NCBI GenBank assembly: GCA_041170505.1
Contig: JBEAYS010000078.1
Span: 1-61,238, forward strand
Source: Cyanobacteriota bacterium
GTDB taxonomy: Bacteria; Cyanobacteriota; Vampirovibrionia; LMEP-6097
Direction: 5' to 3'
Length of the DNA stretch: 61,238 nt
Below the pieces are notes generated by a model that was not told where the DNA came from, ran no database searches, and saw only the letters and a list, made by a program, of their open reading frames with translations. Of this stretch, positions 1,873 to 58,894 are shown one piece after another. The first letter of the stretch is position 1. Each line of letters starts with the position of its first letter. The translations under genes and the position numbers were made by a program.

Positions 1873-1948
1873 GCGGAAGTAGCTCAATTGGTAGAGTACT
1901 TGCCTTCCAAGCAAGCTGTTGCGGGTTCGAGTCCCGTCTTCCGCTCCA
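1873..1948 (+). tRNA. tRNA-Gly (anticodon UCC), CCA end encoded
   Basis: Manual cloverleaf. Acceptor stem GCGGAAG/CTTCCGC, D arm GCTC-AATTGGTA-GAGT. Anticodon stem CTTGC/GCAAG with loop CTTCCAA (TCC). T arm GCGGG-TTCGAGT-CCCGT, discriminator T, then CCA. Confidence 0.93.
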
Positions 1949-1953
1949 TTTTA

Positions 1954-2080
1954 TTAAGGATCCACTGAAAAATGCGACTTCGTCGATTTTTCAACCCTGA
2001 GCCAAGAGAAAATCTTGGCTCAGGGAGTGAGTCCTTAATATTCTTGTTAGGCGGATTCCACCACAAAACCTCATTTCAAA
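1954..2080 (+). mobile_element. Family-1 MITE copy A (TTAA-flanked, 3' end degenerate), immediately downstream of tRNA-Gly
   Basis: ttaaggatccactgaaaaatgcgacttcgtcgatttttcaaccctgagccaaga-gaaaa-tcttggctcaggg... It has the same architecture as copies at 4428, 40600, 41597, 55090 and 61119. Confidence 0.8.
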
Positions 2081-2140
2081 TATTAAATTTTGCACCTAGG
2101 TCTTTAGATCTAGATTTTTTGGCCGATAAGCTTCATTAGG

Positions 2141-3012: not shown

Positions 3013-4431
3013 ATGAATACAGAATTAGAGTTATTAATGCCAGGCGGTAGCTTGGATAAAATCAAATACGCGATTGCTTACGGAGCTGATGCGGTTTATG
3101 CAGGGGTCCCCAGATATAGTTTGAGGGCGCGCGAAAATGAGTTTTTTGATGGGGAGCTTGTTCAGCAGGCTGTGGATTTTGTGCACGCGCGGGGCAAAAA
3201 AATCTATCTCACTTGCAATATCTACGCGCATAATAACAAGATCAATGGTTTTATGTCGGCGATGGAAGAGATGATGTCTTTTAAGCCCGATGCTTTTATT
3301 ATGACTGATCCAGGGCTGATCGCTTTGACTAAGGAGAAATTCCCTGATGCGGTGATTCACTTGTCGACTCAAGCGAATAATACTAACTGGGCGCAGGCGA
3401 AGTTCTGGCGTGACTATGGCGTCAAGAGAGTGATTCTGGCGCGCGAATTGAACATCGATGAGATTCGCGAGATTCACGAAAACGTGCCTGATCTTGAGCT
3501 GGAGGCTTTTGTCCATGGCTCTATTTGCATGGCTTATTCTGGAAGATGCCTTTTGTCAAATTATTTGAGCTACCGTGATGCCAATCAAGGTACTTGCTCG
3601 CACACTTGTCGTTGGGGCTTCAAAGTCAATGTTAATGATAAACCCGGCGATGATGTGGTCACAGATTATATTCCGCTAGATGGCGATTTTTACTTGGAAG
3701 AGCGTGAGCGTCCTGGTGAGATGATGCCTGTTGATGAAGATGAGTACGGCACTTATATCATGAACTCAAAAGATCTCTGCGCGATCGATTACATGGCCCA
3801 ACTTCGAGATGCTGGAGTTATAAGTTTTAAAGTCGAGGGGCGCAACAAAACTGAATATTATGCTTCCTTGGTGGCGCGCGCTTATAGACGTGGTCTTGAT
3901 GCGATGGCTGACGGTAAACCTCTGCCAAAAGAGCTCAGAGACTGGATGCTAGCTGAGGTCAGCACTACTGCTAATCGTGGTTTTATCCCTGGATTTTATG
4001 CGCGCAACGCGCGAGCGGCGGCTCAAGAGCTGGAGCGTTCTCACTGCGTGCAGACTCATTTATATGCTTGTCGTGTGGTTAATTATGATCCCTCAACCCA
4101 AGTCGCTGAGCTGGAAGTAAAAAATCGTTTTGACAAGGGTGATACTCTTACTTTTATTACTCCAGATAGAGAGTTCGAGATGATCGTCCAAGAAGCTTAC
4201 TATAAGGGGCATCCAGAGGCTTTGGAGTTTTCTAGTCGTGCTTGGAATAATTCCAAAAAAGAATTTAACGCAAATCAGATAAAACCTACTGATCATGCTC
4301 ATGGTGGCGGAGAGAATGTTTTTGTAAAACTCAGTCAAGATTTGGGTTCTGACTGGTCTACAGCGATAGTACGCATGCCTTATAAAGAGGCTGTCAGCCT
4401 AAGACAAAGAACACCAGTAGCAGTATTTTAA
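3013..4431 (+). CDS. Peptidase U32 family protein (PrtC/YegQ/RlhA-like)
   Basis: 472-aa ORF with N-terminal ELLMPGGSLDKIKYAIAYGADAVY and central EAFVHGSICMAYSGRCLLSNY, typical of the U32 family. The stop codon TAA lies inside the TTAA flank of MITE copy B. Confidence 0.9.
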   Translation: MNTELELLMPGGSLDKIKYAIAYGADAVYAGVPRYSLRARENEFFDGELVQQAVDFVHARGKKIYLTCNIYAHNNKINGFMSAMEEMMSFKPDAFIMTDPGLIALTKEKFPDAVIHLSTQANNTNWAQAKFWRDYGVKRVILARELNIDEIREIHENVPDLELEAFVHGSICMAYSGRCLLSNYLSYRDANQGTCSHTCRWGFKVNVNDKPGDDVVTDYIPLDGDFYLEERERPGEMMPVDEDEYGTYIMNSKDLCAIDYMAQLRDAGVISFKVEGRNKTEYYASLVARAYRRGLDAMADGKPLPKELRDWMLAEVSTTANRGFIPGFYARNARAAAQELERSHCVQTHLYACRVVNYDPSTQVAELEVKNRFDKGDTLTFITPDREFEMIVQEAYYKGHPEALEFSSRAWNNSKKEFNANQIKPTDHAHGGGENVFVKLSQDLGSDWSTAIVRMPYKEAVSLRQRTPVAVF

Positions 4432-4566
4432 GGATCCACTGAAAAATGCGACTTCGTCGATTTTCCAACCCTGAGCCAAGAAGGGATCTTGGCTCAGGGA
4501 GTGGATCCTTAATATTTTTGTTAGGCGGATTCCGCATCAAAACTTCGTTTTTCAGCGAATCCTTAA
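4428..4566 (+). mobile_element. Family-1 MITE copy B (full length, ~139 bp including TTAA flanks)
   Basis: The ends TTAAGGATCCACTGAAAAATGCG and CGTTTTTCAGCGAATCCTTAA are imperfect terminal inverted repeats. Inside are a 13-bp perfect hairpin CCCTGAGCCAAGA/TCTTGGCTCAGGG and a nested 10-bp inverted repeat AAGGATCCAC/GTGGATCCTT. Confidence 0.85.
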
Positions 4567-4588
4567 ACATTGGGTCGCTGGGTTTTGA

Positions 4589-6406
4589 GTGGCTCAACCA
4601 GTGAGTTGTTTCGTAAACTATAATATTAAGCGGATGCAATTTTCGTTTAGAGACAAGATTTTTAGTGATAAGTTTTTGGGCTTGGTGGTTTTTGCTTTTT
4701 TATTTTTGATATATGGGACTCATAGCTACCCGCTTTTTAGTCTTGATGAGGTGCGCTACGCCGAAACAGCGCGCGAAATGATAGAGAGAAACGATTATAT
4801 AAGCCCTTTTTGTAATTATGTTCTAAGACCAGAAAAACCAATATTTTTTTATTGGTTAGAAATTTTGGCTTTTAAAGTTTTGGGTTTTTCTGAATTATCT
4901 GCTCGCTTGCCCTCGGTTTTTATGGGCACTTTTACGGTGGCGATGGTTTTTTTGCTGGCGGAGTATTTTGGTTTTGGGTTGTTTGCTGGTCTTGTAACCC
5001 TTACTAGCATTGAGTTTGCGGTAGTGTCAAAACTATCAATCACCGACATGACTTTAAATGCTTTTATTACAGCTACTTTGATATGTCTCTTTTTTACTTA
5101 TGTTTTTTGGCGTGCTGAAGATTTAGCGCGCGCTGGTGTTTCGGCGAGCTCGGATGTTTCGGCGAGCGCTGGTGTTTCGGCGGGCGCTGAAGATTTAGCG
5201 CGCGCTGGAGATTCCGCGCGCGCGCAGGGATTGACAAAAGCGCGAAACTTTTTGTTTTTGGCGGGAGTGTTTAGTGGTCTTGGTTGTTTAGCCAAGGGTC
5301 CTGTTGCGCTTGCATTGCCGGGTTTAGTATTTTTGGTTTTTTTAGTAGTTCAGCTAAAATTCGTATGCTTCCTAAAAGCCTTTTGGCGAGAGCTTTTGCA
5401 GACCCTAGCGATTTTTTTGGTTTTGGTTGTGCCTTGGTTTTTGGCTGTGCATATGGCAACTGATGGCGAGTTTACTAGAAGATTTTTTTTCCAAGAGAAT
5501 ATAGATAGGTTTCTTGCTGTTAAGACTGGGCACTCAGCGCCTTGGTTTTATTATTTGCCGGTGTTTATGGTGGGTTTTATTCCCTGGATTTATTTTTTTC
5601 CGCAGACTTTGGGTTTTGTTTTTTCGGAGTTAAAATCTGGATCTAAAAATCCTAATTTGGGCGCTAGAAATGATTTATTAGTTTTTTGTTGTTTGTGGTT
5701 TGCTGTGATCTTTTTGTTTTTTAGTTTTGCTAAAACTAAGCTTACGACCTATATAATCGGGGTTTTTGCGCCAGCTAGTTTACTAGTCGGGGCATGGTTT
5801 TTTGGCTTAAGTGTTATAAAAACCAAAAAAATGGGAATAATATTAGGACAAGCACTTTTTTCTTTAAGCGGAATTTTAGTTTTATTCATTTGTAGTTTTT
5901 TTAAGGCCAAACTTTTGGAAGTGGATCCATTGGCTTTTGGACCACAAATTTTATTTACTTCAATTATGGTTTTGGTCTCTGGCGTCCTTGCAATCATATT
6001 GCTCATGCGCTTTTCCGTTCGCCACTCGTTTTTGTGTTTTGCGCTTGCTAATGCTCTAATCTTCGTTTATGTGAATGATAATTTTATAAAACCAATTTCG
6101 TTTTTTAGAGATTCTGGCACTCGCGAGTTTGTCCAAAAACTCAGTCCCGAAGATAGTTTGGTGAGTTATGGGATGCCACCAGAGCGATTTGAGTTTTATG
6201 GTAAGCGACAAGTTGTTCGCCTAAATGAAGGGCGTCTAAAGAAATATTTTAATGGCACTCTAAGCAAGTCCTCTAAAACAGGTTCTGGGGAAAAATATCT
6301 AGTCTTTAAGACAAAAGATTTAGATAAATTGGTCGCTATCAAAGGCTCTGATAGACTTGATTACGTGATTAAAACCAAGTTTTTTTCTGTGATTAGGTGT
6401 TTTTAA
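4589..6406 (+). CDS. ArnT/PMT_2-like (GT83-type) membrane glycosyltransferase; alternative start ATG at 4634
   Basis: Polytopic membrane ORF with N-terminal LDEVRYAETAREM...PEKPIFFYW, resembling the DExRYAE...KPP motif region of the ArnT/dolichyl-phosphate-mannose transferase family. Confidence 0.8.
   Translation: MAQPVSCFVNYNIKRMQFSFRDKIFSDKFLGLVVFAFLFLIYGTHSYPLFSLDEVRYAETAREMIERNDYISPFCNYVLRPEKPIFFYWLEILAFKVLGFSELSARLPSVFMGTFTVAMVFLLAEYFGFGLFAGLVTLTSIEFAVVSKLSITDMTLNAFITATLICLFFTYVFWRAEDLARAGVSASSDVSASAGVSAGAEDLARAGDSARAQGLTKARNFLFLAGVFSGLGCLAKGPVALALPGLVFLVFLVVQLKFVCFLKAFWRELLQTLAIFLVLVVPWFLAVHMATDGEFTRRFFFQENIDRFLAVKTGHSAPWFYYLPVFMVGFIPWIYFFPQTLGFVFSELKSGSKNPNLGARNDLLVFCCLWFAVIFLFFSFAKTKLTTYIIGVFAPASLLVGAWFFGLSVIKTKKMGIILGQALFSLSGILVLFICSFFKAKLLEVDPLAFGPQILFTSIMVLVSGVLAIILLMRFSVRHSFLCFALANALIFVYVNDNFIKPISFFRDSGTREFVQKLSPEDSLVSYGMPPERFEFYGKRQVVRLNEGRLKKYFNGTLSKSSKTGSGEKYLVFKTKDLDKLVAIKGSDRLDYVIKTKFFSVIRCF
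5114..5207 (+). repeat. GC-rich in-frame repeat block inside the GT83 gene
   Basis: The 23-bp direct repeat gctgaagatttagcgcgcgctgg occurs at 5114 and 5185. It brackets three 18-nt tandem units (..tgtttcggcgrgc..) encoding AGVSAS/SDVSAS/AGVSAG. Confidence 0.8.
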
Positions 6407-40135: not shown

Positions 40136-40187
40136 TTAAGGATACACTGAAAAATTCGACTTCGTCGATTTTGCAACGAATCCTTAA
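40136..40187 (+). mobile_element. Family-1 MITE, internally deleted 52-bp relic
   Basis: ttaaggatacactgaaaaattcgacttcgtcgattttgcaa-cgaatccttaa keeps both ends but lacks the central hairpin. A further isolated end, cagtggatccttaa, lies at 40360-40373 in inverted orientation. Confidence 0.7.
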
Positions 40188-40369: not shown

Positions 40370-41332
40370 TTAATAACCAGCAAGTTCTTTTTCTAGCTCT
40401 TCGATGCTTGGTAAGCTGGATTTTAGATGTTCGGGAAATGCTTTAGAGAGCTGGTATTCAGAGATCCCGATGGGCTTACCGATATCTTGCAGTGCGTATT
40501 CTGCGACTATTTTGTTTTTGTTCTTGCAAATAATAATCCCAATAGAAGGCTGATCCTCACTGGTTTTGAGCGTCTTGTCGATAGCTGATAGATAAAAAAT
40601 TAAAGATCCACTGAAAAATGCGACTTCGTCGATTTTCCAACCCTGAGCCAAGAAGGGATCTTGGCTCAGGGAGTGGATCCTTAATATTTTTGTTAAGCGG
40701 ATTCCGCCTCAAAACTTCGTTTTTCAGCGAATCCTTAATTTACCTGCGTATTCTGGCTTAAAATCACTTAGCTTCAGCTCGATCACGATATAGGCATGCA
40801 AGCGAGTATGATAAAAAAGCAAATCTATATAAAAATCTTGATTATCTATTTCTAAGTGATACTGCCGCCCAATAAAAGCAAACCCAGCTCCTAATTCTAA
40901 TAAGAACTTTGTAATATGCTCTACTAGAGCGTTCTCAATGTCTCTTTCTTGGGCTTCCTTGCCAAGGCTCAGAAAATCAAAGTTATAAGGGTCCTTGAGT
41001 ATTTGATGAGCTAAATCGGATAGGGGCTGAGTTAGAGTAGTCTTAAAATTATGAGTTTTGTCGGATAGGGATTGTCTCTGGTAAAGTTTGCTCTCGATTT
41101 GGTGGACCATTGCGTTGCGTGACCAGCCGTTTTTGATGGTCTCATTGATATAAAATTCTCTTTCTTTTTTATCTTTGATTTTGGCTAGAAGGGTTATATT
41201 GTGATACCAGCTAATTTGTGCAAGTACCTCTTGCACAAAGCTTAAATCCTTATAATGTTCGGCAAAAGCCCGCATGTACTTTAGGTTTCTTGTAGAGAAC
41301 TCTTTTAATGAGTGACTACCGCCGAAACGCAC
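40370..41332 (-). pseudogene. DUF1016 (YhcG-like PD-(D/E)xK nuclease) paralog, 5'-truncated and interrupted by MITE copy C
   Basis: ORFs 40724-41332 and 40370-40651 are the two halves. Removing 40600-40738 while keeping one TTAA restores ...PEYAGKLNFYLSAIDKTLKTSEDQPSIGIIIC. The first ~70 codons are missing relative to the intact paralog. Confidence 0.8.
40600..40738 (+). mobile_element. Family-1 MITE copy C, inside DUF1016 paralog
   Basis: ttaaagatccactg...cagcgaatccttaa, flanked by TTAA on both sides. Confidence 0.85.
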
Positions 41333-41381: not shown

Positions 41382-42477
41382 TCATTTCCATGCTTTTAGC
41401 TCTTTTAGAATAAAAGCTTCTAACTCTTCTTTCTGAGGTAGTTTCACCAAGTATTTTGCTACAAACAATTGTTTATCCATGCCGGCTGTAGCGTATTCGA
41501 CAAGTTTTTGTCCTTTTTCGGTGCATAGTAAAATACCGATGGCGGGATTGTCATCGGCTCGCTTCACTTCGGCGTTGTAATAGGCGACGTACGTGTTTAA
41601 GGATCCACTGAAAAATGCGTCTTCGACGATTTTTCAACCCTGAGCCAAGAATGAATCTTGGCTCAGGGAGTGAATCCTTAATATTTTTGTTAAGCGGATT
41701 CCGCCTCAAAACTTCGTTTTTCAGCGAATCCTTTACTGAGAAAGATACTCATGCTTAAAAGCGTCTACTTTTAGTTCTATAACCACATGGCATTTTAGTA
41801 CACGATGATAAAAAACCAAGTCTATAAAAAAATATTCATCATCGATCAAAATTCGTTTCTGGCGATACTCAAAACAAAAACCCAAACCAAGCTCACTAAT
41901 AAAATCCTGCAAATGATTTAATAGACCTGTTTCTAGATCTTTTTCTTCAATTAATTTATCAGTTTTTAATCCTAAAAAATCAAACAAAAAAACAGATTTA
42001 ATCGCATCTAACTGACCAAGTCCCTTTTATCGCAGAACTCTCATAAAAATTGCGTTTTAGGGGGTCTTGTATAGTTAATAATTGTTCTATGTGGGTATAG
42101 GATAGGTTGTTTACAATTTTTTCTGCAGGTACACACAAATTAGGATTAAAAAGTGGGGTTGATGACCCCACTTTTGCGAAATCTGGGAAATAGGCAGAAA
42201 CATAGGATTTAATCTGAGGGTAGCATTTATAGAATTCTTTAAATCGATACATCGCTCTGCGATCGATCCCTTTTATGTGCTTGAATCGCTGAGCTAAAGC
42301 TGAGAAGAGCTTCTCACCATAAACAGCACGATCTTCCCCTTTTTGTTCAAATTCAACTATATAAAAACCGATCAACCAATTCCTAATCGTTAGTGATATA
42401 TTGACTGCTTTAAAAGCTTGTTGTTGCAGTCGTTCATGTGTTTGCTCAATAAAAGATACTAACGACTCGAAATTCAT
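41382..42477 (-). pseudogene. DUF1016 (YhcG-like nuclease) paralog with a frameshift/stop near 41990 and MITE copy D insertion
   Basis: ORFs 41998-42477, 41733-41987 and 41382-41567 are colinear with the intact paralog. Removing 41597-41735 while keeping one TTAA restores ...FKHEYLSQLNTYVAYYNAEVKRADDNPAIGILLC. Confidence 0.8.
41597..41735 (+). mobile_element. Family-1 MITE copy D, inside DUF1016 paralog
   Basis: ttaaggatccactgaaaaatgcgtcttcgacg...cagcgaatccttta. The right flank is TTTA rather than TTAA. Confidence 0.85.
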
Positions 42478-43695: not shown

Positions 43696-43822
43696 GTTTT
43701 AACCTTTAATAAGCATCTTCTTTATTAAGAGTTTAGCTTCTAACCTTTAATAAGTCAAATTCTTATTAAAAGTTATTTTATCGCTTATTTGTTGGATATC
43801 CAGAAAACTACCGAGAGTACAA

Positions 43823-43866
43823 TGAAAAACGAAGTTTTGAAGCGAAGCCTTAAGCAGAATAAGATT
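43823..43866 (-). mobile_element. Family-1 MITE end fragment
   Basis: tgaaaaacgaagttttgaagcgaagccttaagcagaataagatt resembles the reverse complement of the MITE 3' end. It abuts a remnant of a DUF1016 gene start (43866-43905), where ATG has decayed to GCG. Confidence 0.55.
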
Positions 43867-55089: not shown

Positions 55090-55228
55090 TTAAGGATTCG
55101 CTGAAAAACGAAGTTTTGAGGCGGATTCCGCCTAACAAAGATATTAAGGATCCACTCCCTGAGCCAAGAAAAAATCTTGGCTCAGGGTTGAAAAAGCGAC
55201 GAAGTCGCATTTTTCAGTGGATACTTAA
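55090..55228 (-). mobile_element. Family-1 MITE copy E (reverse orientation, full length)
   Basis: ttaaggattcgctgaaaaacgaagttttgaggcggattccgcc...ccctgagccaagaaaaaatcttggctcaggg...cagtggatacttaa. Confidence 0.85.
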
Positions 55229-57825: not shown

Positions 57826-57880
57826 AATGTTTTTTGTTAAGAGGATTCCGTCTCAAAACTTTGTTTTAAGTAAATCCTTA
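57826..57880 (+). mobile_element. Family-1 MITE 3'-half relic
   Basis: ttttttgttaagaggattccgtctcaaaactttgttttaagtaaatccttaa. Its terminal TTAA contains the tsaD stop codon (minus strand). Confidence 0.65.
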
Positions 57881-58894
57881 ACTAGCTCTAGCGTAAACTT
57901 CTTGCTGAAGGGCTTTTGGATCAGCAGGCACGTGTGATTGTGATCCATGCTTGTATAAAAAATATCCAGCTGATGCGATCATCGCAGCATTATCAGTGCA
58001 GTATTTTAGAGATGGAACTATTAGATTAAATCCATTTTCTTGAGTAAATTCTTCTTTAAATTTAGCTCTAATAGCGGAATTGGCGGCGACTCCTCCAGCT
58101 AGTACTATTGAGCGCAGTTGAGTGTTTTGGCTTGCAAGCAAAACTTTTTCAAACAGAGTCCTTGCGATACACTCCTGAAAAGCTTTTGCTATTTGGGCTT
58201 TATCGCTCTGCCATTGTTCTGGTGAGATTTTTTCTTTTAGGCGTAGTACGGCAGTCTTAAGTCCAGAAAAACTAAAATTATAATCGCCCACTTTTGGGAC
58301 AGGGAAACGATAGGAGCCAGTATCTGTAGCTGTTTGAGCAAGCTTATCTAAATGAGGACCCCCTGGATAAGCCAAGTCCATAAGGCGTGCTACTTTATCA
58401 AAAGCCTCTCCAGCAGCGTCATCCACAGTCTCACCCATGATCTGCATATTAGTAAAATCAGGCATAGCGATTACCTGGGTATGTCCGCCACTTGCCAGCA
58501 TACACAAAAACGGTGGCTCTAAATCTGTCTCCAAAAAATTAGCGCAAACATGCCCGTAGAGATGGTTTACAGGTATTAGGGGTTTTTGGTGGATCCAAGC
58601 AAGAGTCTTGGCCACATTGAAACCTACCATTAGCGAGCCCACTAAGCCCGGTCCCTGAGTGACGGCGATGGCTGTAATATCTTTTATTGTGATTTGGGCT
58701 TCGGCTAGAGCGTCGTGAATTAGTCTGTTAATAGTCTCAAGGTGCATTCTAGACGCCACTTCTGGAATCACTCCGCCCCATTGTTTATGCTTGAAAATCT
58801 GTGAAAAAACTTTTGAGCTCAGGGCTTGACGGCCGTCTTTTATTACAGCTACAGCCGTTTCATCACAACTAGTCTCTATGCCTAATACGATCAT
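57878..58894 (-). CDS. tsaD: tRNA N6-adenosine threonylcarbamoyltransferase
   Basis: ILGIETSCDETAVAV, HLYGHV and SGGHTQ motifs of the Kae1/TsaD family. Confidence 0.95.
   Translation of the reverse strand: MIVLGIETSCDETAVAVIKDGRQALSSKVFSQIFKHKQWGGVIPEVASRMHLETINRLIHDALAEAQITIKDITAIAVTQGPGLVGSLMVGFNVAKTLAWIHQKPLIPVNHLYGHVCANFLETDLEPPFLCMLASGGHTQVIAMPDFTNMQIMGETVDDAAGEAFDKVARLMDLAYPGGPHLDKLAQTATDTGSYRFPVPKVGDYNFSFSGLKTAVLRLKEKISPEQWQSDKAQIAKAFQECIARTLFEKVLLASQNTQLRSIVLAGGVAANSAIRAKFKEEFTQENGFNLIVPSLKYCTDNAAMIASAGYFLYKHGSQSHVPADPKALQQEVYARAS

Follow-up and report, generated by a model that had tools for sequence, protein, structure and literature searches.

Among the described bacterial repeats, the Correia elements of Neisseria and the RUP elements of Streptococcus pneumoniae resemble the repeat studied here in being abundant, intergenic MITEs of ca. 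100 to 160 bp, in having inverted ends that fold into long hairpins, and in inserting into one another or clustering. Both Correia and RUP duplicate TA. RUP is associated with an element of the IS630 type, and for Correia we know of no autonomous partner. The present repeat differs from both in its 4-bp TTAA duplication and its IS5-type partner. ERIC-type elements of enterobacteria are described as flanked by a 5'-TA-3' motif (review). The closest parallel is Nezha of Anabaena/Nostoc, a MITE of ca. 130 to 170 bp from the cyanobacterial lineage with very stable predicted folds. Its mobility was deduced by comparing filled with empty orthologous sites, and its ends and duplication match those of ISNpu3, an IS known from a different species only (PMC3184786). 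The same situation, with the IS found elsewhere, and the same reasoning from filled and empty sites apply here, but Nezha differs from the present MITE in its ends, its sequence, and its host lineage, which here is the nonphotosynthetic Melainabacteria. In the literature on MITEs in Melainabacteria and Caenarcaniphilales, we found no description of this repeat family.

As for the machinery, Escherichia coli IS5 inserts at Py-T-A-Pu, and TTAA is among its documented sites (PMC5493358). The partner IS described below has in common with the IS5 group a single-ORF DDE transposase with DUF772 and DDE_Tnp_1 domains, a length of ca. 1.2 kb, short inverted ends that start with GG, and a 4-bp duplication at Py-T-A-Pu. 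Compared with the mix of CTAG, CTAA, and TTAG listed for IS5 (PMC5493358), the target here (TTAA) is far narrower, and the element in our DNA is a nonautonomous derivative, not an IS. Eukaryotic piggyBac, with its strict TTAA target duplication, resembles it in the target tetranucleotide and nothing else: the ends here do not start CCC...GGG, and the partner transposase fits IS5-family and not piggyBac-type models.

The window, that is, the whole stretch of 61,238 nucleotides analyzed here, is contig C78 of assembly G000 (1.70 Mb, 181 contigs, 85.6% complete). Its fumarase has the nearest match (82%) in a MAG labeled Candidatus Melainabacteria. The repeat in the window has a core of 131 bp (139 bp with both TTAA tetramers) and no element-specific ORF. 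Judging from the sequence comparisons that follow, it is a noncoding, TTAA-duplicating MITE, very probably moved in trans by the transposase of a 1.17-kb IS of the IS5 family. The parts of the element and its occurrences in the window are listed in Table 1, together with the corresponding sites in the same-genus genome G001.

Table 1. Anatomy of the element in its full copy at 4428 and occurrences of the repeat in the window
Feature	Position	Strand	Remarks	Site in G001
Full copy	4428-4566	+	BLAST; sequence read as first described	Empty, single TTAA; its TAA is the U32 peptidase stop in both genomes
Left TTAA duplication copy	4428..4431	+	TAA doubles as stop codon of the peptidase U32 gene (3013-4431)	
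Left terminal inverted repeat GGATCCACTGAAAAATGCG	4432..4450	+	Alignment boundary	
Hairpin 1	4440..4467	+	Pairs the left end's inner part with an inverted copy of it; folds	
Hairpin 2	4469..4499	+	13-bp perfect stem, 5-nt loop	
Inner inverted copy of left end (AGTGGATCC), then internal TTAA	4500..4512	+	Closes 13-bp outer stem	
T-rich spacer with third TTA(A/G)	4513..4526	+		
Right hairpin	4527..4562	+	Right terminal inverted repeat (4546-4562) forms its 3' arm	
Right TTAA duplication copy	4563..4566	+	Flank alignment and empty site	
tRNA-adjacent copy	1954..2086	+	Left 93 bp near consensus; right hairpin degenerate	Right hairpin shared
Derivative	40136..40187	+	44 bp (ends and hairpin 1) plus two TTAA	Missing; empty, single TTAA
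Full copy	40600..40738	+		Exact empty site, one TTAA
Full copy	41597..41735	+	Right flank is TTTA	
Fragment of right hairpin and end	43819..43853	-	BLAST match of 22 bp, inverted, at 43823	
Full copy, inverted	55090..55228	-		Empty, single TTCA
Right module alone	57830..57881	+	BLAST, starts at 57831	
Copy truncated by contig end	61119..61238	+	BLAST	

The original prediction counted nine copies or relics in the window, and a BLAST search with the 139-bp query matched all nine places, the match at 40136 covering 42 bp of the left end. A tRNA gene (1873-1945) lies 8 bp upstream of the first copy, at 1954. The imperfect terminal inverted repeats, the inner 13-bp stem with its variable 5-nt loop, and the outer stem described at the outset were all recovered in the sequence, the alignment, and the folds; the 13-bp stem pattern with any 5-nt loop occurred 6 times in the window and not once in 100 shuffles. 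The claim that every complete copy is bounded by TTAA was right for most copies, but the copy at 41597 has a different right flank (Table 1) and that at 1954 lacks a clean right end.

The inverted ends are imperfect, 17 to 19 bp long (GGATYCRCTGAAAAA), and the terminal repeats GGATCCACTGAAAAATGCG and GGATTCGCTGAAAAACG are conserved at the very edges of the alignment, as in a MITE. Between them, the element is modular. The left module (left end, hairpins 1 and 2, and the inverted outer end) folds as a three-way junction whose 13-bp closing stem includes TTAA. It is also found by itself between two TTAA tetramers, and the segment at 4500..4512 is at the same time the right end of this 77-bp "A-solo" subelement. 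Hairpin 2 was seen within the element only, and a few copies lack exactly this hairpin. Its loops read GAAAA (15 copies), ATGAA (15), and AGGGA (14), along with the reverse complements TTTTC (6) and TTCAT (5); the presence of both orientations means that whole-hairpin inversions took place and spread afterward. Of ca. 110 copies of the right hairpin, 3 are inverted; as a 36-bp unit with TTAA flanks, this hairpin stands alone ca. 20 times in the genome. Other pieces that contain the right module alone have ragged left edges and no left end, and these look like products of decay rather than of transposition.

A genome-wide BLAST count, proposed together with the original prediction, gave 58 matches of at least 125 bp in the whole assembly and more than 120 partial matches besides. 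Together, they cover 174 merged intervals on 95 of the 181 contigs, or 0.89% of the assembly DNA, so that the repeat has the many dispersed copies typical of a MITE. Divergence from the consensus had a median of 4.8% and a minimum of 0.8%. Among other genomes, 13 of the 24 from this bacterial family contained matches to the repeat, as opposed to 0 of 16 from elsewhere.

To locate the limits of the element, we aligned 56 full copies together with 20 bp of flanking DNA. At both ends, similarity breaks off sharply at TTAA: the eight flanking positions are each 93 to 100% conserved, and the sequence farther outward is random. In 42 of the 56 copies, the flanks are TTAA/TTAA, contrary to the outcome (genome-wide copies without TTAA flanks) that was named beforehand as fatal to the idea; one copy is flanked by TTCA/TTCA. 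The comparison with G001 agrees with these boundaries. The two genomes are 83 to 98% identical over the window, with breaks at four element sites, and when the element and one TTAA were removed in silico, the window became collinear with G001, with flanks 83 to 97% identical. At each of these sites, G001 has a single tetramer (Table 1). The 4-bp TTAA target duplication put forward originally is thus borne out by exact empty sites, as well as by an IS with the same ends and duplication (see below). Two further places are less simple. At 1954, G001 keeps the degenerate right hairpin and lacks the near-consensus 93-bp left part, so either the left 93 bp was inserted beside an old right hairpin or it was lost from G001. 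The right module at 57830-57881 lies within a stretch that G001 matches unbroken at 98% identity and is therefore probably an older insertion common to both genomes, as seen from the stretch as a whole and not from a base-by-base alignment of the site itself.

No transposase for the element had been seen in the window, and none was found there or in the rest of the assembly. The search for a longer element with the same ends and a transposase failed in the genome itself, where 17 inverted end pairs 200 to 4,000 bp apart all enclosed ordinary genes and no transposase, but it succeeded in relatives. An end-pattern search in five genomes of the same family revealed end pairs separated by ca. 1,177 bp in G019, which belongs to another genus and is assembled in 10 contigs. 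They delimit an IS of 1,169 bp with inverted ends GGATGCACTGAAAA and a single ORF of 317 amino acids, present in at least eight copies that are 98 to 99.7% identical. The protein matched the NCBIfam model NF033581 (transpos_IS5_4) with 265.7 bits (cutoff, 140), as well as the Pfam domains DDE_Tnp_1 (PF01609; 101 bits) and DUF772 (PF05598; 71 bits). Related IS were found in genomes G020 (67% amino acid identity, intact) and G004 (79%, broken), and a protein search added relatives at 84 to 88% identity on short metagenome contigs. Two metagenome contigs, L149 (1,257 bp) and L150 (53 kb), carry the IS with ends TTAA followed by GGATCCACTGAAAAATG, and their transposases are 87% identical to that of G019. 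The ribosomal protein genes of L150 are syntenic with those of contig C108 of G000, at ca. 73% nucleotide identity.

The ends of the L150 IS are 100% identical to bases 1 to 21 and 1 to 20 of the MITE, TTAA included; for L149, the values are 100% (bases 1 to 21) and 95% (bases 1 to 20). The flanks of the IS are equally informative. Ten copies have matched 4-bp flanks (TTAA/TTAA in six and TAAA/TAAA, TTAT/TTAT, GTAA/GTAA, and TTAC/TTAC in one each), and an eleventh, truncated by a contig end, retains its left TTAA. The partner IS therefore makes the 4-bp duplication of the IS5 family, whose published target is Py-T-A-Pu, and the TTAA targeting seen here is a narrow version of this family preference. 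The MITE and the autonomous IS share ends and duplication, but since the match is confined to the outer ca. 20 bp, the MITE is no simple deletion derivative of the IS; its right end, GGATTCGCTGAAAAACG, matches the IS end less well than the left. The nearest named plasmid-borne relative among the best 5,000 matches (all below 60% identity) is ISXfu1-like, at 37.7% identity, and the partner IS is therefore itself undescribed. The family that was originally left unnamed, with piggyBac as a well-known case of TTAA specificity, is IS5, and there is nothing piggyBac-like about it: the partner protein matches IS5-, IS4-, and IS1182-type models only, and the ends of the element start with GGAT.

The partner IS was located in G019, G020, G004, and the two metagenome contigs, and it was not found in the assembly that harbors the MITE copies studied here. 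Searches of this assembly with the G019 IS (tblastn and blastn) and with the Pfam model DDE_Tnp_1 gave no match, and neither G000 (85.6% complete) nor G001 yielded an IS5-type transposase or IS DNA, both assemblies being fragmented and 76 to 86% complete. The partner may be unassembled, may have been lost, or may never have been resident. Its transposase, with the gene missing from the assembly, would have moved the copies in this genome.

Two other kinds of transposase have to be weighed against this one. Had we had only the TTAA-flanked copies and the single-TTAA empty sites, a TA-duplicating family of the IS630/Tc1-mariner type, as in pneumococcal RUP, would have fitted equally well, with the central TA alone being duplicated and the outer T and A representing a preference or a part of the element. 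The decisive evidence comes from the off-consensus sites. The matched repeats GTAA, TTAC, TTAT, and TAAA around the partner IS and TTCA/TTCA around one MITE copy imply that all four bases are duplicated and that TTAA is target DNA, not element; they exclude a TA-duplicating family, and the partner transposase is in any case of the IS5 and not the IS630 type. The probability left to an IS630/Tc1-mariner derivation is practically nil. The abundance of hairpins in the element could also point to a REP-like or IS200/IS605-type palindrome, moved by a tyrosine (Y1/HUH) transposase for which TTAA would be the recognition tetranucleotide instead of a duplication. The assembly does contain a single Y1 transposase-like gene (contig C82, 5076-5411), with a copy of the MITE 114 bp upstream. 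This gene, however, is bracketed by inverted repeats of its own (GGTCGTAGATCGACATTCGACAAA and its complement), which are unlike the MITE and carry the GTAG motif of the second repeat family of the genome, as in a REP/REPtron (RAYT-associated) arrangement that does not involve our element. The MITE copy lies between the Y1 gene and its GTAG repeat as an insertion at TTAA. Moreover, the MITE has true inverted ends in common with a DDE-type IS, and its off-target copies show real duplications, which makes mobilization by a Y1 enzyme very improbable.

A different alternative accepts mobility and adds a role for the host, which would have co-opted the element as a structured RNA or DNA signal (a terminator or a stabilizer of mRNA ends) and thereby conserved its three-hairpin layout and length. 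The structure is certainly well kept. Copies from six genomes in five genera are all ca. 139 bp long with the same layout, even in one genus in which divergence of the inner sequence is almost complete. Of the cells in the 50 proposed pairs, 82.8% form standard pairs in an alignment of 17 sequences, against 31 to 52% in controls in which the partner was slid by 1 to 3 columns, and 14 pairs have changed on both sides. For instance, the A24-T30 pair of hairpin 1 has become T-A in 6 of the 17 sequences, and the outer stem exists as GGATCCAC/GTGGATCC, as GGATCCGC/GCGGATCC, and, in a third group, as GGACCCGC/GCGGGTCC. The element folds far below shuffled sequences (z of ca. -9 as DNA and of -7.5 and -9.2 as RNA for the two strands), a T-run follows the outer stem on its 3' side, and many copies lie just past gene ends. 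This T-run had suggested a terminator, a suggestion that did not hold up: with respect to the gene reading into the element, 14 copies have the same orientation and 16 the opposite one, and such random orientation leaves a terminator role unsupported. Along similar lines, a consensus terminator scan of positions 4300 to 4700, around the copy at 4428, flagged nothing, and the sole match at gathering score in an Rfam search over the window was the tRNA at 1873-1945, the element being unmatched. Given that almost every compensatory change is of the Watson-Crick kind, G-U intermediates being few, and that the loops flip, we infer that the hairpins are DNA palindromes whose arms evolve in concert and not working RNAs. 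Shared descent, together with the upkeep of transposase-binding ends, can also account for conservation across genera. A host function on top of mobility is thus without positive support, and we regard it as quite unlikely. Also unlikely is the broader notion that the three-hairpin layout of 131 bp is functional instead of a by-product, either through a transposase of this IS5 branch that needs folded ends or subterminal hairpins on very short substrates or through host use of a bidirectional RNA-end structure. In the folded-end variant of this notion, the ends would be cruciform or single stranded.

We then considered where the copies of this MITE lie with respect to genes, approximated as nonoverlapping ORFs of at least 100 amino acids. 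Outside such ORFs were 48 of the 58 full copies, compared with 18% of the 14,976 TTAA sites of the genome. At ten copies, the TAA stop of a neighboring ORF comes from one or both of the flanking TTAA tetramers, and two of these ten lie between convergent genes, with the duplicated tetramers serving as both stops. TTAA contains TAA on both strands, so a stop survives an insertion onto it, even where convergent genes have the tetramer in common. Stop codon tetramers are occupied by 10 of the ca. 50 nondisruptive copies, against the 11% expected among harmless TTAA sites. This amounts at most to a mild enrichment, attributable to the duplication leaving both stops intact. Under the mechanism that we propose, the DDE transposase of the 1.17-kb IS5-family IS would act in trans by binding the MITE ends and would make 4-bp-staggered cuts at TTAA, and repair of the gaps would duplicate the tetramer. 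The copies that persist are almost all intergenic, some of them on a stop-containing TTAA where the duplication has left the stop intact.

The shorter forms (the 77-bp left module, the 36-bp hairpin, and the 44-bp derivative) are probably mobile too, because each of them keeps two end-like sequences beside TTAA. For the 36-bp form, the comparison with G001 gave mixed evidence of mobility. Among these minielements, one is shared and one is absent, with G001 reading TTAGGTAATTAG and not a clean TTAA at the site; at another site G001 has unrelated DNA, and at another a diverged element. For the two-ended deletion derivative on contig C71 (position 13133), G001 retains an 11-bp remnant only. Elements of 36 to 44 bp, with little beyond two ends placed back to back, have clean TTAA flanks, and the 44-bp form has an empty site as well.

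For the annotation of Melainabacteria, these results define a repeat family together with its IS. Assemblies are broken by the repeat, with five contig ends of this MAG lying inside it, and it also marks recent insertions between sister species. As for its target, the TTAA specificity seen here is ordinary IS5-family behavior and not that of a bacterial piggyBac.

In two places of the own genome, contigs C64 and C44, a full MITE copy was found precisely between convergent ORFs, whose TAA stops correspond to the two duplicated TTAA. Therefore, a single TTAA was common to both genes prior to each insertion, serving them as overlapping stop codons.

Within the window, the MITE copy at position 1954 lies 8 bp past the end of a tRNA gene, and at this site the same-genus sister genome (G001) retains only a degenerate right hairpin, with the rest of the copy absent. 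The mini-element, that is, the 36-bp right hairpin alone, is present between two TTAA in C141, while the matching site of the sister genome (L157, G001:C193) reads TTAG-GTAA-TTAG, which could be an excision footprint or merely divergence.

Location of the features described
Feature	Position	Remarks
Full MITE copy exactly between convergent ORFs	G000:C64:1902-2040	Own genome
Full MITE copy exactly between convergent ORFs	G000:C44:13494-13632	Own genome
tRNA gene	Window 1873-1945	Rfam match, 72 bits
Mini-element	G000:C141:9005-9044	Own genome
Y1 (HUH) transposase-like gene with flanking inverted repeats	G000:C82:4800-6083	Outside the window
IS5-type element inside another transposase-like gene	G019:C5:1028269-1030445	L087; another genus, same family

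The own genome also encodes a Y1 transposase-like product of ca. 320 amino acids. The gene is bracketed by the inverted repeats GGTCGTAGATCGACATTCGACAAA and TTTGTCGAATGTCTATCTACGACC, containing the GTAG motif of the second (GTAG-palindrome) repeat family of this genome, and the whole unit looks like a REPtron. A TTAA-MITE copy has inserted between its left inverted repeat and the gene.

The IS5-type element in L087 is a nested insertion: its target was a TTAA within another transposase-like gene, the reading frame of which runs on, on the minus strand, at both sides. Different MITE families were found in other genera of the same bacterial family (L124-L128 and L141-L146; genomes G008, G012, and G015), with lengths of ca. 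108 to 110, 119 to 120, and 177 to 178 bp plus one TTAA per side. The longest form is the 108- to 110-bp one with an extra block within the central hairpin. In these families the ends are again GGAYNCNCTGAAAAA and each side is again flanked by TTAA, but the interiors are unrelated.
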